A stretch of 63,804 nucleotides of DNA, counting the filler, from Collodictyon triciliatum (Eukaryota): the NCBI GenBank assembly GCA_043381765.1. It is 6 parts of 6 records of this genome, joined end to end, with 100 filler letters (N's around TTAATTAATTAA, not from the genome) between each part and the next. Parts side by side here need not be neighbours in the genome. Positions count along the whole stretch, not along the records: positions 53,234 to 63,804 come from JBHJMP010002642.1; 5 more parts are not named here. One strand, given 5' to 3'. The notes under the pieces are model-generated. The model ran no database searches, was not told the origin of the DNA, and was given only the letters and a program-made list of their open reading frames with translations. This document shows, piece by piece, positions 8,205 to 61,689 of the stretch. The translations under genes and the position numbers were made by a program. Numbering within the stretch: the first letter of the stretch is position 1; each line of letters begins with the position of its first letter.

Positions 8205-10297
8205 TTACATCGAAACGTTGCGATGTACAGTAAGAAAACTGATCACCTCCACCAACATGACTTGAACTTCGGTAGAGCTGATTCTCTTCTCATAGTCCTT
8301 TTCCCAGCATAGTAAGACCAATGATGCGAGGTTGGGAGGGCACGAAGTTGGCAACTTCAAATTACCTTTCGAAACACGATAACCAATCTCGTTTATTGTC
8401 ATTCCTTCATAGGGATACTCACCAGTTAGCATAGACCAGATGATGACACCGTAAGAATAGACATCACTCGAAGGCCCCATACTTTTTCCAATCTCAAAGA
8501 CTTCGGGCGGTGACCAATTTTTTGAACCGCCAAAGACGCTCATTGAATTTACTAGTAAGCCTATCTTCGAAGCACCAAAGTCGGATATCTTTGCGACCCC
8601 ATCGACTAATAGGATATTTTCAGTCTTGAGGTCGCGATGCTGGATTGGCCCTCGAATCCGAGTATGCAAGTATTTGAGGCCTTGGATGATGTGCATCGCA
8701 AATTGCAAAGTTGTATCGCTCCTTAATGGCCTATTTTCTCTAATGTAAGTACACAAGTCGCCTCCAGTTGCAAATTCCATTACAAAGAGGAGATCTTTGC
8801 CACGATAGCCATAGTCAAATAAAGTAGCTACGTTTGGGTGTTGAAGTCCAAGCATAATACTGCCCTCCATTTCTATGTCAAAGCCACAGTCTGACTTGTA
8901 GGAGGCTGCGTTGGCGATTTTTTTCACAGCAACCAAACCGGCTTTGAGTCGAACTTTGTAGACCACACCGTTGCCACCCTTTCCAATGGCATCCTCAGAG
9001 TTTTCAAAATCAAAGAAGAGAACATCGGCGTATTTGCCAAGTGCGAGACCGCTTCCAACTGAAATTATATAGTGTATTATTATTCGACTTTGTGTAAGTA
9101 TGATACCAAAAAAAAAGTGATTAACCAGTATACTTGTAAGGTTATTGTTACCAGATCTACGTCTAGACGATGCGGGTTGAGGTTGGGGTTGGAGATGTGG
9201 TGTTGCTGGAACGGTTCGTGCTTTCGATGAATTAGGAGCTCCGGGTGCCTTTGTAAGGATTGCGTTTATTCAAGAATATTATATGCCATTAGCAAGAAAA
9301 AAAACACAAGTGAGAAAAACAATAACAATCTCATGATGAGAGGATGATTATGCTGCTTTACAGTATCGTAGAGATCCAATTTTCGAAGGGAGTCTGAATA
9401 GCTTGTTGTCATCCATGCCTCCTTGTCTTTGCTCCTCCAACACGGGAGGTTTGTAATCCCTCGCGGGGCTCTCTTGATGTTTATCATGCCAGATCCGTTC
9501 TGAATAGCTAGCCTCTGTAGATTCTTTAGCATGGTAAAATGCTCTGGGAGCTCCTGAATCTATGCGCATAAGAGAGGGAGAGCAATAAGTCAAAAAATAC
9601 ATAAATTTACAAACTAAAGCATAAATCAGCCAAGTACAATTGAAAAACAAACTGGCTTTATGAGCATACTTAATGAGCTGCATAAAAAAAAATGATTTGA
9701 TATAAGCGCAAACAATTTTCACTGTATTTCTATTATCTTAGAGAATAAATATGCATTATCAAATATAAATTTACTAACAGGATTGCCGAAAACAAAGAGG
9801 ACTTCGAGCCCGGTCAAAAGAAACAGCTCTGTCGGAAGGGAAGAAATCTGGTTGTCAAAGACCCGGAAATCCTTCAGACGAACAAACGCTGATAAAAATG
9901 TAGGGAGCGATGTAAGCCGGTTGCTGGGAACACTAAGCTCTGTCAGGCCTGTCAGTCCCTCCATTCCAGCAGGCAATGACATAAGTTGATTGTCATGCAT
10001 GATGAGTCTGATAAGGCCTGTCAACAGTGCAATCTCCATAGGGACGGATGAAAGTATGTTGTTTTGCAGGTCAAGCCGCGTGAGTCCGGTCAAGCGCGAT
10101 ATGTGCGGTGCAATATTCGAAAGCTTGTTGTTGCAGAGACTTAGGCTTGCCAGACGCGTCAGTTCCCACACACCCACAGGCACGGCTCGAAGGCTGCGTC
10201 GGCCCAGCGGCAAGTATGTGCAGCGTTCCAGAGACTCGAGGCTGTCAAATCCAGCCAGCTTTTGAAGCTCTTGCAGGTGTGCGCGGAGATCCGTCAT
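8205..10297 (-). CDS. Cytosolic leucine-rich-repeat protein kinase (TKL-like)
   Basis: Exons 10297-9779, 9559-9362, 9248-9134, 9058-8205 are in frame. About 7 LRRs, then GKGGNGVVY, VAVKK, HRDLKTEN, DFG, WSPPE, SDVYSYG. No signal peptide or TM segment seen. Confidence 0.9.
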
Positions 10298-10340
10298 TGC
10301 GTGCTTTTCTGGAGGTGTTCTGAGTTTTGTTTGCTCAGTA

Positions 10341-10406
10341 AGTTTTGCAGGTTTTGCAAGTTTTGCAGGTTTTGCAGGTTTTGCAGGTTTTGCAGGTTTT
10401 GCAGGT
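10341..10406. repeat. 9-bp tandem repeat (AGGTTTTGC)n just upstream of the LRR-kinase ATG
   Basis: About 7 units directly visible. Confidence 0.9.
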
Positions 10407-10499
10407 AATCGCGATCTGCTGGTGATCTGTGCTTCGAATTGTTTGGGTTTGTTTGTTCAAAAGTTGTTTAAACCGATCAAGTAGCTAACACTACCTAAT

Positions 10500-10554
<55 letters not shown>

Positions 10555-10654
10555 NNNNNNNNNNNNNNNNNNNNNNNNNNNNNNNNNNNNNNNNNNNNTT
10601 AATTAATTAANNNNNNNNNNNNNNNNNNNNNNNNNNNNNNNNNNNNNNNNNNNN
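10555..10654. other. Artificial scaffold spacer N44-TTAATTAATTAA-N44
   Basis: Six-frame stop linker, repeated identically five times in the window. Confidence 0.97.
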
Positions 10655-21209: not shown

Positions 21210-21309
21210 NNNNNNNNNNNNNNNNNNNNNNNNNNNNNNNNNNNNNNNNNNNNTTAATTAATTAANNNNNNNNNNNNNNNNNNNNNNNNNNNNNNNNNNN
21301 NNNNNNNNN
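21210..21309. other. Artificial scaffold spacer
   Basis: N44-TTAATTAATTAA-N44. Confidence 0.97.
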
Positions 21310-49423: not shown

Positions 49424-51170
49424 CTAGACATCGGCCCGCGTGGCGAGACGGAGACGATTGCGGAGGATGTACTCCATGGCAAGATAGACGTATCTGAGCT
49501 GCTCCTTGGACTGGACAGACTTTGGCCTGCGCAGCCGCAGCCTGGCAAGCTCAAAGTAGATGTCGACGGCGCCGTGCAGATCCCAGGAGCGCCAGGCAGC
49601 CGCAAGGAGAAGGATGGTGCCTGTGCGGCCGACGCCAGCCCTGCAGTGGATGACGGCGGCGTTTGTCTCGGAGCAGGAGCGGACAATGGCGGCCATTTCG
49701 ACGACGCTGCGGAGGAGCCCGTCGTGCGGCACGTCAAAGTCGCCCCAGGTGGGCATGCGGAAGACATGCAGCCGGTGATGCCCGTTCAGCACATACGCCT
49801 TCTGCACAACCCCGACCAGGCTCGCGTGCAGCGCAAAGCCGTCCTTGAGGATCGGGTCGTCGGCATCGTGGAGCGGAAGCAGGCTGGACGAGGCGAGCCA
49901 CTCGGGCGGCTGTGGCTGTGGCTGTGGCTGTGGCTGTGGCTGAGCAAGCATCTTGAGGCGGCTGCCAAGGGTCAGATGCTCCGAGGCGTCCGGGCGCGAG
50001 CGGGGTCGGCGTCCCGGGGTGGATGCGGCAGACAGAGTGGATGCGGATGTCGATGCACTGGCCGAGTAGGACGTGTTCGAGTCTGCTTCTGCGTCTGCGT
50101 CGGCCTCTGCATCGGTCGCGGTCAGCAGGGTCGGGATCGGGGCTGGCTCGTCCAGAGGGTCGATTTGATGCACGACAAAGGAGGCGTATCGGCGGATGGT
50201 GTCTGGGCGCCAGTAGGCCACGTCGATGAGGGGCCCGAGTGCGATGATGTAGTGGATGTGCGCCTTGAGCACGGCCTCGTAGAGCTCGGACAGGTTTGTC
50301 AGGAGCGGCCACTGGATGGCGGCCACGCCCGGGCGGATCCAGCTGCCCATGTGGGCGAGATGGTTGAATGCGTATGGCTGCGTGTCGCGGAAGCGGATCT
50401 TGTCCTCTGCGGATGCTGATGCTGATGCTGATGATAGTGTTTTTGACTGTGATGACGATGACGATGATGATGGGCGTGAGGTGGATGATTGTAACTGTGA
50501 TTGTAACTGTGATTGTGATTGTGATTGTGATGACGACGACTCGGCGCAGGATGCACACGGGGTCTCGCCGTGCGGGCAGAGGCTGTGGGCCAGCGTGTGG
50601 AGCGTCTCGGCAAAGAGCGGGTTGTGGAGAGACAGGTGGTGCAGAAGCGCGTCCCAGCGGGCGGCGTGCGGATCTGTCAGGCGCGCAGCCTCGGCGGCAA
50701 AGTCGTCGGCCGTGCGGCACACGCGGTGCGGCGGAAGCGTCACGTACAACTCGCGCAGCCGCTCCTGATACGCTCGTCGGCCGCCCTCCGTGCAGAAGCG
50801 CAGCCCCGGCCGGATCGGCTCCTCGTCCCGGATCAGCCGCCCGTCCGGCTGCGTCCGCCACTCCTCCAGCGCTGCGTCGCTGCCGCTTGGCTGGCCCTGT
50901 GTTTCTCTTGCTTAGCTTTGCTTTTCAATGGTTACTTGATTCATTCGTTTTCTTTTATTTGGGGGTTTCTTTTCCCTTCATGCTGCAAGGTAGCAGCAGA
51001 GAGAATGGGAGTGTGTGAGTGAGTGTGGGAGTGAGTGTGTGCGTGTGTGTGTGTACCGTTCCAGGACGAAGGCGGGTTGGTGCGGTTTGGACGCCTCCGT
51101 CGTAGAGTCCGTCGGGATTCGGGATTGATACGCGCAGGCGTCCATAGGCCTGTTGCTGCAGATGCCGCAT
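49424..51170 (-). CDS. Classical protein tyrosine phosphatase, GC-rich, probably 2 exons
   Basis: KIRFRDTQPY (KNRY-like), WGDFDVP (WPD loop), IHCRAGVGRTG, RLRRPKSVQSKEQ. Candidate intron 50897-51056; the first exon is less certain. Confidence 0.88.
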
Positions 51171-52213
51171 CGGGAGTCGGTCTCTGGGCGGGCCTTTGTT
51201 TAGTCGGTGGTTTATTATGCAGGTTTATTGTTTTGTCACTGTGCTGCTTTAAGAGTATTTCTTTTTTCTTTTCTTTTTAACAAGCGTGAGAAGATTGTAA
51301 AGAAAAAAAAAAGAAATCGTCGGCCTTAGCTCTGCTTTACTCACTAACTCCCTCCCTCCCTCTCTCTCTCTTTCCTCACCTCTGTCCCTCTTATATTCCT
51401 TTTTTATTTTTTATTTATCTTTTATTTTTTGTCTATTCGGTTGACAGTTAGGCGTGTGCCATGAGCGAAAAGGGAACGCACAGGAAAAGCAGCTGCGCGA
51501 TCAAACGAAGGGAAGGATCGACATGCTGCAACCGCTGCCGCGCAGTACTCTTTGTCGTTTGCTGTGTGCCGCGGGATCTCTCGAGTGGAAGGAGACGCCT
51601 CTCAGACGTTTGGCAAGCGAACCAGCGTTGCTTTTCTTTGAGACAGAGATGCGGATGCGAGCGAGAAAGTGGCGTTGCCTTTGTTGCTTGTGTCGTCGTT
51701 GCGTTAAAGGCTTTGCCTGCTTATGGTTAGTCCCTTTCCATTGTACGATTATCTTTCTATTCGTGGCATATTCCCCTGATATAATAGCACGCTTAAAGAA
51801 GAAAAATGCATTCATAGTAAATGTCATCCTCCTATATTGGATACTTGTTCAACATTTTGTAATATTCTTATATACCTTCACACTAAAGATAATTAATACG
51901 GCTAAAAGTGATATTAAATAAAACCTAATAGCAATAATATAAAAATCCACATTAGTATATTTGAATTATAACGTCATTTGCTGTTAAGTTTCAGTTTCTT
52001 TTTCTGGAATATTTACTCAACCTTTCTGTGAGTTTTTTTGTTTTCCGAGAGGGCATAGTCTCAGGTGGGTTGCGGTGATCTGTTCGGGTTGTGGAAGTTG
52101 TTTTTTTCTTTGATCGTTTATTGATTTTTTTTTCTCTTTCTCTCTTTTCCTTTATCTTCTGCCGCGGTGCGTCCCGTAGAAGAGAATGGGGTATGTGAAG
52201 GACAGTTCTTGTT

Positions 52214-53133: not shown

Positions 53134-53233
53134 NNNNNNNNNNNNNNNNNNNNNNNNNNNNNNNNNNNNNNNNNNNNTTAATTAATTAANNNNNNNNNNN
53201 NNNNNNNNNNNNNNNNNNNNNNNNNNNNNNNNN
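53134..53233. other. Artificial scaffold spacer
   Basis: N44-TTAATTAATTAA-N44. Confidence 0.97.
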
Positions 53234-54130: not shown

Positions 54131-56314
54131 CTTTTGACTTATTCTTCATTCACAATTAAAAATAACGATAAAATTAATAAAAAAATGGCAATATACATGA
54201 AAATATATTGTTTTCTTTTGCTTGTAACATTTTGCATTTTTTTGGTTAGCCGATGAAATACATTGCAATGTGATTATTTTCCATCAATTGATTCAAAGTT
54301 TCGAGTACATTTTGCTGGGCTCTTTCAGACATTTTTTTATTCTAAAAGTCTTAGCTGTTGAGCCCGTCTCAACAATCAAAGGCTCTTTCAGACATTCTAA
54401 AATCACAATTATTAAATTATAAGATATCTTGCAAATAACTGCTAAATGCAGTACAAATCTAACAAATCTAACATATCTAACACCATTATTAATGGAACGA
54501 CTCTTTCTCATCTCAAAATGAGCTCTTTTTTTTTTTTTTAAAAAAAAAGGTTCCTTTTGTTAATAATAATATGTAAATATCTTAAGATGAAATAATTGTA
54601 GGTATTTTCAGATTTTATGTATAGTTATGAAAATAAGCTATTATTTGAAAGTGATTTATTTGACGATTCAATATTTTAAACTTTGCATAATTGAATAGAT
54701 ACGTAACCTGGGTATATACAAAACTGAGAACATTGAACACAGTTTTAATCAAATTTCATTATAAAAATAGCATATGCCGAGTTAAAATAATTTTTTAAGA
54801 CTTACGAATTTATTGTCAATCCTCAAAGAAATTTCATACGCCATAAAATTTGATTATCTCTGACTTTACCTTTAAACCTTATATTCAGCCATATATATTA
54901 CATAGAACCACCCATAGTCATCTTTACAAAAGTATAGAGAAATACATAATTTTTGTAAATGCACATTTTTATATTGAATTTGTGAATGTATTTTTATGAG
55001 ATGAAACAAAATTGCTTCGAATCTCTCAGGAAAAATATTTGAAAGATATAATATCAGTTTAAAAATTAGTTATTTTGATTAATTAGCAAATTCTGTCCTC
55101 AAATAATTATTTTTGTGTTCTATATAGTAAGAAAAAAAGGCAAACCAAAACCAAATATATCAATATCATTTAAGAGTAGAAAACTGTACATCGAGGAAAT
55201 AAAAATTGTACTTCATATAGTTCTTTCCTATGTCTAGAGAATAATTAAGTTTTCATCTAGTTGGAAAAAACCCCCAAATGTACTGTCATCATTACCAAGA
55301 CTGCATATTCTGAAGACAAGATTTCTCTAAACTTATCATAATCATATCAAAAAATTTCCTTATTTATTCAAAATAAAAATTTTATCAAATTTAAAACAAA
55401 ATGAAGCTGCTAGGAACATAACTCATATGACCTAATTTTCTTGCTTACCCACCCCAAAATTACCTCTTAATCTTGATTTTAATCCTTTAAAATACATTAA
55501 ATACTTCAAAAACAAATATCGCCAAGATAGTCATTAAACATAAAGCTTTATCACAAGCAATTCCTAATGAACAACTGTGGTATTCAGGATACTCAAATAT
55601 TTTTTTTATCTTTATACGATTCAGGACACTGAAATATATGATATTTACCCTAAATAACAATTGAACAAGAGGGGCATCCATTGATATTATGTCACTTTTT
55701 TTTAATCTTGAATGTACTCTTGAATAAATCATAGTAAATTTCATCGAAAGATACACAAATATGAACATAGGACGATTTATATAAACCAAATAATCAAAAA
55801 TTACTGTGTTAAAATGAATTTCTTTAAAGGTTAAATCACATATTTACATCATAGTATTTTTCTTCGGATTCTGCCATCACAAGCCCTAATTTTATTTCGG
55901 TAATTGCTATATGTTGTAATGAAACTTTGAGAAAACAAAGTTTTAAGATTTAGTTTTTGCAATCATGAATATTTAAATCAGAAAATATTTTATTAAATAT
56001 CGTAGCCTCTATGTGGGCACTTCTTGTTTGGGCTTCAGGCTTCGTTAAAATAGCACCACATGAACTTGAATGTGCCATGTGTGTGTCATAAGATTTTAAA
56101 ATTATGCCCAATTGAGGTTTGATTTTTATTATTGTAGGGAAGAAGTACATATGTCTTGTGAAAGTAAAGCAAAATTTGGATATAATTGGGGTTTCGAACT
56201 GCGACATCTATTTCGTTGGAAATCTACAAGGCTTGTGTTGTTTATCTTTTCGGTTTCGAATGCCAAAAAAATTGATAGTTCTCATCTTTGCTGAAAAATT
56301 TATATAAAATATAG

Positions 56315-59300
56315 ATATACAAACCTACTTGCTCCATGTTTTGTCGTTGCTTTTTTATTTTTATCGGTGACTTATGCTCGGCCGCCTCCAAGGTATCTTT
56401 AAAAAAAAAAAGAAGAAAATTTTAAACAGCAGTGAGTGATTGACTTACAAAAAATATTAGATGTCAATACTCAAGAAACGAGTTGCTTTCAATGAAAGTT
56501 GAAGATGCTTTTCAAATACTGCTGAGAAACTATGATGAGACATGCCCTTACATTAAAGATAGCGTTGAATGTATTTCTGAATCGATAAACAGTCATCAGA
56601 ACGTAGACTTTAATGCTGAAACCATAGATTCTTATAAATGGAACGATGATTACGAAACTTGCATTCAAGAAGCAGATTTCCATGAAAATGACAACATATT
56701 GCAACGGAGAGACAAAAAAAACTGGACACCGGTACAAGAAAGCGATAAGATAACCAATATCAATGGCACTTCCAGCCAATATAAACTTCTTGTCAGGCTC
56801 TACGATGTGCTTGATGGAGATAATTGGTCTGACAATCGTGGATGGAAGAATGAAAGCATTCCAATATGTGAGTGGTATGGAATAGGTTGCTATGAACGCT
56901 GTATGGGTGAGGAATACATGGTAAGCATTTTTTTTAAAATGTCATTCATGAACATACCAAAATTAAAAAATTGCTTCTTTGTGGGTATTTACAAAATTTT
57001 ATCAATAGAACAATACATGTCCTGTTGTTAGAATGGAGATGCCAAAAAATTCTCTTTATGGAGATATTGAAGCGGCGTCTGCGATTTTCGGACAGTTTCT
57101 ATTGTTGAACTCTTTGGACTTGAGTTATAATTTAATATACGGAAATCTTCCAGATTTCAACCTCCCAAGAATATCATCTTTGAATCTCTATGGGAATCAT
57201 ATTGTGGGTAGTATTCCAGATTTTCAAGAAATGACCCAAATTGAGGAGTTGCTAATAGATGGGAATGAATTAGAGGGATTTATACCTGATTTTTCCCAAA
57301 TTCCACTAGTGAAAACATTAAGGATTGGTACTAGTGACAATATTACAGGTTCCTTGTTACATAAAAATTATTTTTTTGAATACCAGTACATGGAGATTCC
57401 TCGAAAATTTTTCTTTCATTAGACATGGGTGCTAATTGAAGTATAGGAACTTTGCCTGATTTCTCTGGATTGCCCAATATTCGTTTCCTCGCAATATATA
57501 ATTGTGAAATATATGGTTTGTTATTTTTCTCATAAATATCAATTTTGTACTACACTAATCATACTTGTTAGGAACGATTCCAAACTTTGGTCAGATCCAA
57601 TATGCTGAGAGACTATATTTCTACAATAGCAAACTGGATGGTGATGGTTATATTTATGTAGTAGAAATCCCAAGTATTTCATGCTTGGTAGATGGGAAGA
57701 AATCATATTTGAATGATTAAAAATGATAGGAATAATTTTATGTCATTATTTAATTGCAGGGACTGTCCCAGACTTCAATCGTGTTCCAAATATAATTCTG
57801 ATGTCTATTTATAATAATCAGTTAAGCGGTAAGCACTCATTTTTAGGTATGTAATATCCATTAAATAATGATATCTAATTTTAGGAACAATGCCAAACTT
57901 CAGTAGCACTCCAAACATTATACTGATATCATTTTCTGTCAATCAGCTCACAGGCGAGTGTCGATTTTCCAGCACCATTATCGTATTTATTAAATACTAA
58001 CTTTATTCCATCAGGCTCTGTTCCGAATTTTAGTGAGATCACGAGTATTAGATATGTTTATCTCGACGGAAATCAACTCATAGGTAATCCATACGAATGT
58101 TTAATGCGATATAAATACATCACTGACATAAAAATTATAGGAACGGTTCCAGACTTCAACAAAATTCCCAATATTTTAGAAATTTCTTTGAGCAGTAATA
58201 TGCTGACTGGTGAGGTTTCCATGATTTTTATTTCGGTTATGAATATTTTCCTAATGTTAAGATTGTTGGCACGGGCGCCAACAGCTAAGTCTGTCGTGAA
58301 TAAAAAAAAAACAATTTTTTTTCCTAATGTTTACTATAGGTACCATTCCAAACTTTTCAAATTTAAGAGAAATTGAATTTTTATCTGTATTTGAAAACAA
58401 CATCGAGGGAATGGTTCCGAATTTCAAGGACTGCGTCAGCATGAAGAAAATATTACTGTTTCGAAACAAGTTGACTGGTACTTTACCTTCGTTTAATTTT
58501 ATGAATCTGACAAGACTCGACGTAAGCGAAAATCAAATCAACGGAACTCTTCGCAGAGATTGGAACATTCCTTCAATCCAATATATGGACCTGTCCTGGA
58601 ACAAAATGGATGGTACATTACCAGATTATTTTCAAGATTTATCAGAGTTAAAATCGCTGATTCTTTCCAACAATCGCTTTTATGGAAGTATACCGACCAA
58701 GTTCTGGAACCTGCCTAATTTAGTTACTATCGATCTGAGAAACAATTCTTTTTCTGGGGATGTTGGCACTTTCACTGTCCCTCCTTCTACTAGCTATGAT
58801 TATTTTTATGAAAATTTGTTGCTGGATGATAATGACCTATATGGAGAATTAAACTGGAGGATATATGACTATCTCTTAAATGTTAAAACAATAAGCTTAA
58901 AAAACAACAAGATCACAAGAATTGATGAGCTGACAGCCTTGTTGAAATGGAACTCTCTTGACCTCACTGGAAATCCGATTATTGGAAACATACCAGAGTC
59001 ATACAGAAAATTTTCAAAGCTTGAATATTTAGGGCTATCCAATACATCGATGAATCATGCACCAGCAAATTTTCTTCCTGATTTCATAAGCTACACTTCG
59101 CCGTACAATCTGGAAGATGAGACGAAGCGTTACCTATGTCCGTCCATTATTTCAAAATCTGGCCTTATTGAACTAATGATTGACATAGACCCAAAATACT
59201 ACAATTTTGAGCTTTGTAAGTGCTTACCGGGATATTTTGGTTTTGGAAATAATTGTGTCCAATGCCCGAGAGAATGTGAATGTCTCGATGGAACATCTCT

Positions 59301-60550
59301 GCAAAAATGTCACGCTTCACCAGATGTTACTTCCGCAAAATCAATCCTGGCATGTCCTCTGCCAGACTCATGCAACTCCCTGATTCCAGAAAAAATATCA
59401 AATTCAAGTACGACTATTGAAATAGTTGATCTTTGTAGGATGGGTTACGAAGGGCATGCATGTTCGAAATGCCAGGATGGATATGGAAGTCAAGGAAGGA
59501 CATGTGTCAAATGTGACGAAGAGATGTTTTATTCAACTCTAATCATCGGCTCACTTGGATTTGGCATATTCATTGGTTATCTATATTTCTCTGAGACATC
59601 AAAAGCAGGTTGATTCAAGTAACCCAGTTGCTGCTCAAAATTTATACTAATTTTATTTATTTATTTGTTCTTTACCTAGCGAAAATTAGAATCATCTTGT
59701 TCCACATGCAAACATTGTCCATTATTTCAGCGGGTCTTGTTCTCTCGGAGGATACCGACAGATTTATTGATATTTCTTCGTCTATTGGTTCAATTCAATA
59801 TCCGAATCTTTCTTGTATAATGGGGATAGACGATGCATTTTTTTCCCTTTTATTTAGTTTTGCGAGAATACCAATTTTCATCATTCTTGGTGCGATGGGA
59901 TACTATTTTGGACATGGAAACCATCGAAACAAAGTAAAAATTACTATTGTTATTATCTAATAGCTATATCATGTTTGCTGTTATTTTTTAACAATTAAAT
60001 CAAAAACAGGCGGTTTTTATCACTTTGAACCTCTTATTCTTTATATACTATTCGGTTGCTAGAGAGGTGTTTGGTGTTTTTGGGTGCACTGTTTATGACG
60101 AAGGCATGAAGATATGGTATTTGAACTCTAAGCCCTGGATTCAATGTGGTCCGGCCTCTGATGAATACCGCAATCTGCTAGCAATATCTGTTCCGATTTT
60201 TGTTTTGTTCTTGTTTGGATTGCCTGCTCTTGTTTTTTGGAAGGTATATATGGTAGCTAAAAGACCTGGGTACGAATCAGAAGCGCGCTATGGCTTCCTG
60301 TACTTGCCATATAAAGAGGTATGCACAAACAAATTTTCGGTAAATTATATCATCGAGTGGTATAATCAATTTGGTTTACACTTTCCTTTTTTCGATTACA
60401 TATCTTTGAAAAATGAAAATATTTTGACCTTGTTTAGTCGTTCAAGTTTTGGGAATTTCGTATAATTGCTCGCCGCATCGCTTTTTCGTTCGTGCTCGGT
60501 GTGATTCCGTACACAAGTCCGGCAGTTTTCTTCTTGTTACTTGTCATTAT
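56315..60550 (+). CDS. Cell-surface receptor-like protein: signal peptide, plant-type LRR N-cap, about 20 LRRs, Cys-rich repeats, multi-pass TM domain (3' end lost in gap)
   Basis: Exons 56315-56392, 56461-56920, 57009-57348, six 69-nt exons (57447-58209), 58340-59608, 59680-59933, 60010-60318, 60438-gap, all in phase. NWSDNRGW..ICEWYGIGC; CRMGYEGHACSKCQDGY; KIRIILFHMQ, RYGFLYLPYKE, FWEFRIIARR. The start codon lies upstream and is unresolved. Confidence 0.9.
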
Positions 60551-61689
60551 NNNNNNNNNNNNNNNNNNNNNNNNNNNNNNNNNNNNNNNNNNNNNNNNNN
60601 NNNNNNNNNNNNNNNNNNNNNNNNNNNNNNNNNNNNNNNNNNNNNNNNNNNNNNNNNNNNNNNNNNNNNNNNNNNNNNNNNNNNNNNNNNNNNNNNNNNN
60701 NNNNNNNNNNNNNNNNNNNNNNNNNNNNNNNNNNNNNNNNNNNNNNNNNNNNNNNNNNNNNNNNNNNNNNNNNNNNNNNNNNNNNNNNNNNNNNNNNNNN
60801 NNNNNNNNNNNNNNNNNNNNNNNNNNNNNNNNNNNNNNNNNNNNNNNNNNNNNNNNNNNNNNNNNNNNNNNNNNNNNNNNNNNNNNNNNNNNNNNNNNNN
60901 NNNNNNNNNNNNNNNNNNNNNNNNNNNNNNNNNNNNNNNNNNNNNNNNNNNNNNNNNNNNNNNNNNNNNNNNNNNNNNNNNNNNNNNNNNNNNNNNNNNN
61001 NNNNNNNNNNNNNNNNNNNNNNNNNNNNNNNNNNNNNNNNNNNNNNNNNNNNNNNNNNNNNNNNNNNNNNNNNNNNNNNNNNNNNNNNNNNNNNNNNNNN
61101 NNNNNNNNNNNNNNNNNNNNNNNNNNNNNNNNNNNNNNNNNNNNNNNNNNNNNNNNNNNNNNNNNNNNNNNNNNNNNNNNNNNNNNNNNNNNNNNNNNNN
61201 NNNNNNNNNNNNNNNNNNNNNNNNNNNNNNNNNNTATGGATCGCTTCACCAGTTTGCGTTCGATTTTATTTTTTTAAGTTGAAGGTTGTTTTTAGAATTT
61301 AACTATTGAGACGACAGACTTTAAAACTACTCGATTCTTTTTGAGAAAACTACAAGGGTTTCATTACTTGATTTTATTTCTTAAGTCACCTGAGGGTCGA
61401 AGCAAAGACATCGGTGAATTCTTTTGTACACAAAAATCCTTTAGTTTATTTGTATATGATGTCCTTTTGAATGGATATCATGTTGGCATAAACTACCAGT
61501 TTGTGTGCATGCACGAATAAAATTCAGCAAAGCCGTGGAAAAAAAAAGTTGGCACCAGCAAAGGTTGTGAATAGTTGAATTTAATTACAGAGACAGAGTC
61601 CACCAATCGAACAATTGTGGCTAACATATCGTAATCAAAAAGTGTGATTGAGAACGAACTCTTCAAAGACGAAGACTGCTTTGTCTGCC

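Follow-up and report, generated by a model that had tools for sequence, protein, structure and literature searches.

An array of six 69-nt single-repeat exons in a leucine-rich repeat receptor-like gene of Collodictyon triciliatum: probably a fixed layout left by ancient exon duplication

Results

Gene model of the receptor-like gene

The window analysed in the present study, that is, the whole 63,804-nt (63.8-kb) stretch of Collodictyon triciliatum DNA, contains on its plus strand a gene whose product combines a leucine-rich repeat (LRR) ectodomain, a Cys-rich stalk, and a multi-pass membrane module, according to Pfam and homologue alignments (Table 1). Elsewhere in the window, a kinase ORF occupies 8205-9269 on the minus strand; its matches reached 33% identity only, the best coming from an amoebozoan transcriptome. 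No Rfam family was matched.

Table 1. Exons and other features of the receptor-like gene, in positions of the window
Feature	Position	Strand	Basis or remark
Putative first coding exon, signal-peptide-like stretch	56336..56392	+	start uncertain
Exon 2: N-terminal region and LRR N-terminal cap	56461..56920	+	translation
Exon 3: end of cap and four LRR units, intron-free, phase 1 end	57009..57348	+	Pfam, unit listing
Cassette C1, 69 nt, one 23-aa LRR	57447..57515	+	exon check, spliced-product match
Cassette C2, 69 nt, one 23-aa LRR	57572..57640	+	exon check, spliced-product match
Cassette C3, 69 nt, related to C4 and C6	57760..57828	+	exon check, cassette comparison
Cassette C4, 69 nt, followed by GC-AG intron 57954-58014	57885..57953	+	exon check, cassette comparison
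Cassette C5, 69 nt	58015..58083	+	exon check
57-nt intron between C5 and C6	58084..58140	+	GT-AG ends, 26% G+C
Cassette C6, 69 nt, related to C3 and C4	58141..58209	+	exon check, cassette comparison
Exon 10: ~10 membrane-proximal LRRs, Cys-rich stalk, first membrane helix; intron-free	58340..59608	+	Pfam and homologues
Exon 11: membrane module	59680..59933	+	translation; conserved motifs of the family read in alignment
Exon 12 onward: membrane module, probably one more intron	60010..60550	+	conserved family motifs read in alignment

At the 5' end, the ATG at 56336 is one base off the frame that joins exon 2, and the joining frame encodes a hydrophobic signal-like stretch without an ATG back to the stop at 56292. 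This frame problem reflects either an error in the length of a T run in the gap-rich draft or a further upstream exon. The 3' end of the model is lost in an N gap (60551-61234). The cap in exon 2 matched LRRNT_2 weakly in Pfam (E 0.0027, 18.4 bits against a cut-off of 20.7), and its motif aligned with Diphylleia homologues. The start of exon 3 follows the acceptor at 57007-57008, the only one that both preserves the frame and agrees with homologue P0002 in the cap. Exon 10 matched LRR_1, LRR_4, and LRR_8, with weak matches to DUF7630 and LRR_ComC, and was 30-40% identical to Diphylleia proteins over its whole length; the exons downstream of it carry the membrane-helix motifs of the family, as read from the translation against the alignment. 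The metagenome ORF P0286, which is 51% identical, has its start and its stop exactly where exon 10 is bordered by introns, and these thus count as old introns. The predicted ectodomain is of the plant type, with about 20 repeats.

Six symmetric cassettes within the ectodomain

The initial annotation described the central block as six consecutive 69-nt exons, each encoding one 23-aa LRR and bounded by phase-1 introns that split a Gly codon. This description proved accurate: all six exons are exactly 69 nt long, each translates to the unit listed there once the G left by the exon before it is added, and all bounding introns are in phase 1 within the Gly codon. An AG acceptor precedes every cassette, and a GT donor follows five of them, the exon ending at 57953 being followed by a GC donor. 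The Gly, Pro, and Phe positions are invariant across the six cassettes, and the flanking exons (57009-57348 and 58340-59608) carry the same G-x-x-P-[DN]-F unit type. Only the central block is modular, as had been proposed, since the flanking LRRs lie in intron-free exons (four units on one side; ~10 units and the Cys-rich domain on the other), and adding or removing any of its symmetric exons would preserve the frame.

The inter-cassette introns measure 56, 119, 56, 61, and 57 nt, with an intron G+C content of 20-34%. Among the seven introns bounding the cassettes, five contain in-frame stops and one (130 nt) shifts the frame; splicing is thus needed for an open frame in six of the seven. Intron 58084-58140 is the only one both free of stops and a multiple of three in length, so that its retention would keep the frame while disrupting the 23-aa period of the homologues. 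Single cassettes are too short for scoring by Pfam, which assigned no family to four of five read-through ORFs and found only sub-threshold LRR matches in the fifth.

In a second sample, a 570-nt contig of sequencing run X1 was collinear with 57580-58149, with one difference and no gaps. Because this contig retains the introns, it derives from DNA or unspliced RNA; in the four runs examined, among which X1 is labelled RNA by guess only, no splice joint was present at the locus.

Age and relatedness of the cassettes

The cassettes are old, and only C3, C4, and C6 are related to one another, as judged from sequence comparison. Pairs among these three share 13 of 23 amino acids and 41-45 of 69 nucleotides, whereas the remaining 12 cassette pairs share 29-39 of 69 nucleotides, about the level seen between cassettes and units of the intron-free flanks (means of 35.1 and 31.2 of 69 nt). 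Of the 13 amino acids that two cassettes of the C3/C4/C6 set have in common, 7-8 are encoded by different codons, and synonymous sites are scrambled. The 10 introns of the gene show 36% mean column identity in alignment, in which the terminal AG alone is invariant. No near-identical cassettes or introns thus occur within the gene, the best cassette pair sharing 45 of 69 nt and the introns being unalignable. The 11-nt stretch reported as common to the third and sixth cassettes is present; the tandem duplication deduced from it is supported for C3, C4, and C6 only, and there it is ancient.

Search for orphan cassettes, paralogues, and intron pairing

The initial annotation suggested searching for orphan cassettes, and none was found on either strand of the 63.8-kb window: a DNA profile recovered the six exons at E < 4e-9 and its next match at E 0.47, and a protein profile run over all six frames of the window gave nothing outside the gene above 6.4 bits. 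The window likewise contains no paralogue of the gene, and the introns, 56-130 nt long, were judged not to offer room for a cassette. Complementarity between the introns that surround the cassettes was at chance level (z from +0.61 to -1.56, with 23 to 210 of 300 shuffles reaching the observed value). Pairing of the Dscam-like docking/selector or looping-out kind was considered and rejected, the inverted repeats around C3 and C6 being no better than shuffles.

Homologues and isoforms in Diphylleia rotans

In phmmer searches, 18 of the 19 family proteins derived from cDNA matched the spliced 138-aa product (E 1e-32 to 1e-116), whose residues 1-138 aligned without a gap to the Diphylleia cDNA proteins P0436, P0121, and P0125; in the latter two, the match to the cassette block lies directly upstream of the equivalent of exon 10. 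The family comprises at least 19 genes in the Diphylleia rotans transcriptome, from which all full-length relatives that were looked up derive, and the gene fits this family in its collinear membrane-proximal LRR block and its Cys-rich stalk with at least 12 invariant Cys. Five of the 18 Diphylleia paralogue alignments show one extra 23-24-aa unit inside the cassette-collinear region, indicating that unit-level change has happened in the family. Among Diphylleia paralogues, the part that lies upstream of the conserved exon-10 block is ~500 to ~850 residues long, and in two further matches it reaches up to ~1290 residues. When metagenomes were scanned for genomic relatives, the 80 loci recovered were all generic LRR genes, and none of them carries the Cys-rich and membrane module. 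A limited literature search found no paper combining 'Diphylleia rotans' and 'leucine-rich repeat'.

Loss of a whole unit was seen in none of the 55 Diphylleia isoform pairs drawn from EukProt, which lists only some Trinity isoforms, so that skipped forms could have been filtered out. The 55 pairs included one single-unit swap and one half-unit deletion. Transcripts of DN3242 differ by the exact replacement of one LRR unit (22 versus 23 aa), bounded by the unit-opening Gly, and by two linked substitutions just downstream, the rest being near-identical; all four combinations of the two variable blocks are listed. Isoform P0426 carries a 12-aa deletion that starts exactly at the Gly of a repeat, a further sign, beside the borders of P0286, of old introns.

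Identity of the ectodomain and membrane module

The ectodomain shows the features of plant-type LRRs, namely, 23-24-aa repeats, an L-x-x-L-x-L-x-x-N-x-L core, a G-x-[IL]-P turn, and an N-terminal Cys cap. In a Foldseek search of the PDB with the AlphaFold model of homologue P0326 (pLDDT 83), plant LRR ectodomains were the best matches (E 3.5e-9 and weaker, ~200-260 columns), and all matches listed were to the LRR ectodomain except LGR4 (rank 48, 734 columns, rmsd 22).

Remote homology of the family's Cys-rich and membrane module to TRP (PF06011)/Ephrin_rec_like proteins is supported by its alignment with P0146 (hhalign probability 99.3%, E 3e-20, 330 columns), a protein that itself passes the Pfam cut-offs for TRP and Ephrin_rec_like. 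Neither family was found at its Pfam cut-off in the window exons or in four full-length relatives, three of them from Diphylleia, and DUF7630, with scores of 15 and 22.4 bits, stayed under its threshold of 27. Neighbours in the Atlas carry Ephrin_rec_like, DUF7630, and TRP (scores 0.94-0.95). In the window exons and the four full-length relatives, Pfam detected no ROC-COR tandem, only LRR families and weak DUF7630 and LRR_ComC, and no protein kinase domain, the C-terminus being a multi-pass membrane module.

Discussion

The protein resembles the plant LRR ectodomains that P0326 matched best in the PDB (MIK2, RGFR1, PSKR, ERL1/2, FLS2, BRI1, and PGIP) in its repeat length, G-x-[IL]-P turn, and Cys cap, but differs from plant LRR receptor kinases in that it has no kinase and its ectodomain leads into a Cys-rich stalk with some nine to ten membrane helices after it. 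In the initial annotation, plant ERECTA-family genes were cited as a case of constitutive one-LRR exons. The Cys-rich and membrane module has remote counterparts in protist multi-pass proteins with Ephrin_rec_like (PF07699), DUF7630 (PF24633), and TRP (PF06011), in which other sensor domains, e.g., Cache in P0151, take the place of the LRR ectodomain.

In brown-algal ROCO genes (Ectocarpus, Saccharina), type I LRR exons are described as 72 nt long, in phase 2, and encoding one LRR each; orphan and reverse-strand LRR exons lie within introns, recent duplicates differ in their number of LRR exons (13 and 17), and as many as nine splice variants occur (PMC3341825, PMC11378527). Both exon sets have one LRR per exon, equal length, symmetric introns of the same phase, and exons opening at G-x-x-P, and both have been proposed as frame-safe modules for receptor variation. 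They differ in length and phase (72 nt and phase 2 versus 69 nt and phase 1), in the lack of orphans within the 63.8-kb window and the old age of the units here, and in the protein encoded, ROCO proteins being cytosolic LRR-ROC-COR GTPases whereas the present gene encodes a membrane protein without ROC-COR. The LRR exon arrays of Tetrahymena are described as tens of thousands of 90-bp, phase-2 exons in proteins mostly without membrane domains, with clonal exon expansion given as the explanation (PMC6564038). The two systems share arrays of equal-length LRR exons with an extreme bias to a single phase, but the present array has six exons, each of 69 nt, belongs to a membrane receptor, and bears no mark of having expanded recently.

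Considering these results, we propose that the six exons are probably constitutively spliced parts of one receptor-like gene, whose layout was left by ancient exon duplication and is now fixed. A unit of one exon and one intron was probably duplicated long ago, clearly so in the case of C3, C4, and C6, and the same-phase introns at the opening Gly of each repeat would be a relic of growth of the repeat array. Alternatively or additionally, an ancestral layout of one repeat per exon may have been reduced by intron loss in both flanks. Joining of all six exons would yield a regular solenoid, which presumably binds an extracellular ligand and may signal through the membrane module. The initial annotation had gone further, suggesting that skipping or swapping of cassettes may generate a variable recognition repertoire. 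The present study lends this no support, given the window without orphans, the lack of near-identity among cassettes or introns, the chance-level pairing, the collinearity of the all-six product with expressed homologues, and the absence of whole-unit loss among the 55 Diphylleia isoform pairs. The beta-strand positions do differ in every unit, as it stated, but this is a property of all LRR proteins and thus no sign of diversification. Against constitutive use stand the symmetric phase-1 exons, which permit in-frame skipping, the GC donor after one cassette, the unit swapped between the DN3242 transcripts, and the extra unit in five of 18 paralogue alignments. In some organisms, GC donors are overrepresented at alternative exons.

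Germline exon shuffling appears unlikely. On this reading, the cassette block would be the evolvable part of a multigene receptor family, in which single LRR exons are gained, lost, or replaced over evolutionary time as alleles or paralogues undergo gene conversion or cross over unequally, as likened to the brown-algal ROCO genes or the 90-bp exons of Tetrahymena, with each allele still constitutively spliced. Symmetric phase-1 exons would make such events frame-safe, and the exact DN3242 replacement with its two linked downstream substitutions fits two genomic templates; the extra unit in five of 18 paralogue alignments and the variable length upstream of the exon-10 block are also in line with it. 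However, LRR families of every kind, intron-bearing or not, commonly gain or lose whole units, and the Trinity variants could have arisen by assembly across paralogues, each of the four block combinations being listed. The old cassettes, the unrelated introns within the gene, and the 63.8 kb free of orphan or reverse-strand cassettes and of paralogues further argue against it.

We regard as improbable that regulated or stochastic alternative splicing skips or selects cassettes, producing a repertoire of receptor variants per cell or population. The six symmetric exons, the one weak GC donor, and the one frame-preserving 57-nt intron would allow it, the Diphylleia unit swap could represent mutually exclusive exons, and the P0426 deletion suggests variable splice choice at the Gly intron; alternative LRR-exon transcripts of Ectocarpus ROCO genes provide a published precedent (PMC11378527). 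However, none of the 55 isoform pairs of the relatives lacks a whole unit, the linkage of the swap to downstream substitutions argues against a single template, intron-intron complementarity does not exceed that of shuffles, and the six-unit form is the one conserved in homologues.

A broader reading, on which the DN3242 replacement offers a hint, is that the central block is the exchangeable part of a large undescribed family of LRR and TRP-like multi-pass receptors in Diphylleia-like protists, single LRR exons being either swapped between alleles or paralogues or mutually exclusive; we hold this to be doubtful at best. If true, a deep eukaryotic lineage other than animals, plants, brown algae, and ciliates would have independently invented the diversification of receptors by cassettes. 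That the gene model is an artefact, the short 'introns' not being removed and the locus being a decayed pseudogene or chance pattern, is very improbable despite the frame problem at its 5' end, considering the consensus-like acceptors and donors of all six cassettes, the low G+C content of the introns and the stops in five of the seven that bound the cassettes, and the fact that 18 of the 19 family proteins match the spliced product (E no higher than 1e-32), three of them without a gap.

In brown algae and ciliates, arrays of exons with one repeat each supply the material from which receptors diversify without loss of frame, and finding this layout in a third, deep-branching lineage of protists would tell something about how frequently such systems arise among eukaryotes. 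In the gene proposed here to be constitutively spliced, the layout is present but looks frozen, providing a useful negative example: exon symmetry by itself does not indicate a diversification mechanism. A by-product of perhaps longer-lasting interest is the sizeable family in which a plant-type LRR ectodomain is combined with a multi-pass module resembling TRP.

Structure of the cassette exons and the surrounding gene

All six cassette exons were exactly 69 nt long in a scripted check of region 55800-60200, and each, together with the G contributed by the prior exon, encodes one 23-aa LRR with Gly first, as claimed in the initial annotation; the 11-nt segment reported as common to cassettes 3 and 6 was also present. 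AG precedes all six cassettes, whereas GT follows five and GC (57954) follows one. The gene model has 10 introns, of which the one after cassette 4 (57954-58014) is GC-AG and all the others have a GT donor. The introns between the cassettes measure 56, 119, 56, 61, and 57 nt, and intron G+C content is 20-34%. On read-through, five of the seven bounding introns give in-frame stops and one (130 nt) shifts the frame; only the intron separating cassettes 5 and 6 (58084-58140), whose length of 57 nt is a multiple of three, is open and in frame, its retention giving 19 extra residues with the frame kept. The check confirmed the six-exon observation and added to it the GC donor and an intron that preserves the frame.

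Exons were joined by their coordinates into a gene model whose product matches the Pfam families LRR_1, LRR_4, and LRR_8 and, weakly, LRRNT_2, LRR_ComC, and DUF7630. The flanks proved intron-free as proposed, and in both of them the LRRs keep the same repeat type as in the cassettes (G-x-x-P-[DN]-F ... N-x-L), so that the cassettes are set apart from their neighbours by introns alone.

Exons of the gene model containing the cassettes
Feature	Position	Strand	Content or remark
Possible first exon	56336-56392	+	one-base frame problem
Exon 2	56461-56920	+	
Exon 3	57009-57348	+	end of cap and four LRRs
Six cassettes	57447-58209	+	one LRR each, between exons 3 and 10
Exon 10	58340-59608	+	about 10 LRRs, Cys-rich domain, first membrane helix
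Exon 11	59680-59933	+	
Further exon	from 60010 into N gap at 60551	+	

Within 56292-56461, the only ATG (56336) is offset by one base from the frame continuing into exon 2, and it is this continuing frame that encodes a signal-peptide-like stretch. This mismatch reflects either a wrong T-run length in the draft, which is rich in gaps, or an additional exon farther 5'. Intron 58210-58339, otherwise A+T-rich, contains a G+C-rich element some 35-50 nt long (58259-58310). Its matches, which have a loose end on either side, include many unrelated short contigs from three sequencing runs aligned to the locus (X1, X2, and X6). A second copy was not found in the window, and Rfam and tRNA searches gave no match there; it resembles a dispersed repeat or a small conserved element.

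Elsewhere in the window, an ORF encoding LRRs of a different class is followed directly, on the minus strand, by a protein-kinase-domain ORF (8205-10456), the two possibly forming a cytosolic LRR-kinase gene. A long minus-strand ORF (49424-50911), which has low-complexity runs and an active-site motif of the tyrosine-phosphatase type, falls in the window's only G+C-rich stretch (50001-52000; 52.9% G+C). The N runs (10555-10654, 21210-21309, 31858-31957, 42499-42598, 53134-53233, and others) show paired 44-N blocks with 12 bases between, some flanked by TGTA-type microsatellites; the paired pattern was read as draft-assembly scaffolding, and the five runs listed are filler between parts.

Relatives and receptor family

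A search among longer proteins with exon 10 returned 705 matches at E <= 1e-3 of 6606 candidates, mostly generic LRR proteins. Eight of these spanned 93-100% of the query, including the Cys-rich domain and membrane start, at 26-38% identity, and all seven that were checked are Diphylleia rotans Trinity transcripts (EukProt). When the query was limited to the Cys-rich and membrane region of the best exon-10 match, 15 proteins were found: eight strong matches, all EukProt Trinity transcripts, and seven weak ones (E 2e-7 to 5e-4), some with Ephrin_rec_like, TRP, or DUF7630. The seven strong matches that were checked (P0001, P0009, and P0139-P0143) belong to Diphylleia, as does P0144. Further Diphylleia genes, together with the metagenome ORFs P0286 (51% identity) and P0292 (63%), emerged when the representatives were searched exhaustively, which brought Diphylleia to 20 clusters seen at the 90% level; two of these are variants of the same gene. 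In the family alignment, at least 12 Cys are invariant and the membrane helices have conserved motifs, and the same helix motifs were recognized by eye in the translation of the window's downstream exons. Freshwater metagenomes contain short contigs near-identical to the locus; these contigs and the confinement of the family to Diphylleia suggest that the window comes from a freshwater relative of Diphylleia, a point on which a kinase gene in the window was uninformative. A metagenome scan for genomic relatives gave generic LRR genes only.

The family profile aligned with the metagenome-derived protein P0146 over 330 columns (hhalign probability 99.3%, E 3e-20). For both TRP (PF06011) and Ephrin_rec_like, P0146 scores above the Pfam cut-off, and Atlas neighbours agree with this affinity. 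P0151, also metagenome-derived, has Cache sensor domains in place of LRRs ahead of this Cys-rich and TRP-like membrane module. The other sensor domains of P0146 and P0151 suggest that a sensor ectodomain on a multi-pass module is a general protist design. The AlphaFold model of the related protein P0326 (mean pLDDT 83, pTM 0.66) comprises an LRR solenoid, a beta-rich stalk, and about nine to ten long helices, the LRR part matching plant receptor ectodomains, among them MIK2, RGFR1, ERL1/2, FLS2, and PGIP. As far as the literature search shows, this receptor family is undescribed.

Origin of the cassettes and tests for an active system

The cassette structure is real. The six cassettes are most likely spliced constitutively in one receptor gene, with the same-phase introns remaining either from ancient unit duplication or from loss of introns in the flanks. 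The spliced 138-aa six-cassette product matches 18 of 19 family proteins and aligns gap-free from end to end with three cDNA-derived proteins, in two of which the counterpart of exon 10 follows immediately after the match. A contig from a run guessed to be RNA keeps the introns and is collinear with 57580-58149, with one difference, which is intronic.

The proposed tandem duplication held in part. Cassettes 3, 4, and 6 are related, with 13/23 residues and 41-45/69 nt in common, whereas the remaining 12 pairs share 29-39/69 nt, close to what a cassette has in common with an intron-free unit (means 35.1 vs 31.2). In cassettes 3, 4, and 6, different codons encode 7-8 of the 13 conserved residues, and the introns show no alignable similarity (mean column identity 36%). 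Any cassette duplication is thus ancient. Furthermore, P0286 starts at most nine residues from the exon-10 acceptor and its similarity ends at the exon-10 donor, indicating that both introns are older than the split at 51% identity.

Ongoing germline shuffling of cassettes is unlikely. It is favoured by five of 18 paralogue alignments with one extra 23-24-aa unit in the cassette-collinear region, which indicates unit-level change in the family over evolutionary time; such change is usual in LRR families generally. The hallmarks tested were those published for brown-algal ROCO genes, and Tetrahymena LRR exons were also considered. Neither orphan cassettes nor paralogues were found within the window: the DNA profile of the six cassettes matched only its own six exons (next match E 0.47), and the protein profile in six frames gave nothing above 6.4 bits in the window beyond the gene.

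Transcripts of the Diphylleia gene DN3242 also favour an active system, showing one LRR unit exchanged exactly for another (22 vs 23 aa), with the unit-opening Gly as the boundary; the preceding 708 residues contain 0 mismatches, and 2 occur just after the unit. The same transcripts (P0143, P0144, P0162, and P0163) carry two N-terminal block variants (~280 residues, about half identical), which occur with the LRR-unit variants in all four combinations, the rest being near-identical. The pattern is consistent with an assembler linking two alleles or paralogues in every way; the variants are either mosaic alleles or paralogues, or alternative, possibly mutually exclusive, exons. Splicing-based receptor diversification, to which an isoform of the Diphylleia gene DN449 points by lacking 12 residues from exactly the Gly of a repeat, as would be expected from an alternative acceptor at a same-position intron, is quite improbable, net loss of at least one whole unit having been found in none of 55 Diphylleia isoform pairs (9 + 13 + 33; one of the 33 without an aligned block). 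At the RNA level, inverted repeats are present around cassettes 3 and 6, yet the introns bracketing each cassette pair no more strongly than their dinucleotide-shuffled versions (z +0.61 to -1.56). Diphylleia isoforms also show replaced segments (12-21 aa) beyond the LRRs, so these transcript "bubbles" are not peculiar to LRR units.

One-LRR-per-exon arrays occur in plants and gonadotropin receptors. They are also known in brown algae and ciliates (PMC3341825, PMC11378527, PMC6564038). As described there, brown-algal ROCO genes have 72-nt LRR exons, in contrast to 69 nt here, with several splice variants and recent duplicates differing in exon number, and their introns contain orphan and reverse-strand exons, of which none was found here within the window (PMC3341825, PMC11378527); the LRR exons of Tetrahymena are 90 bp long (PMC6564038). 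What is new here is a set of 69-nt, phase-1 one-LRR exons confined to the centre of the array, in an apparently undescribed receptor family.
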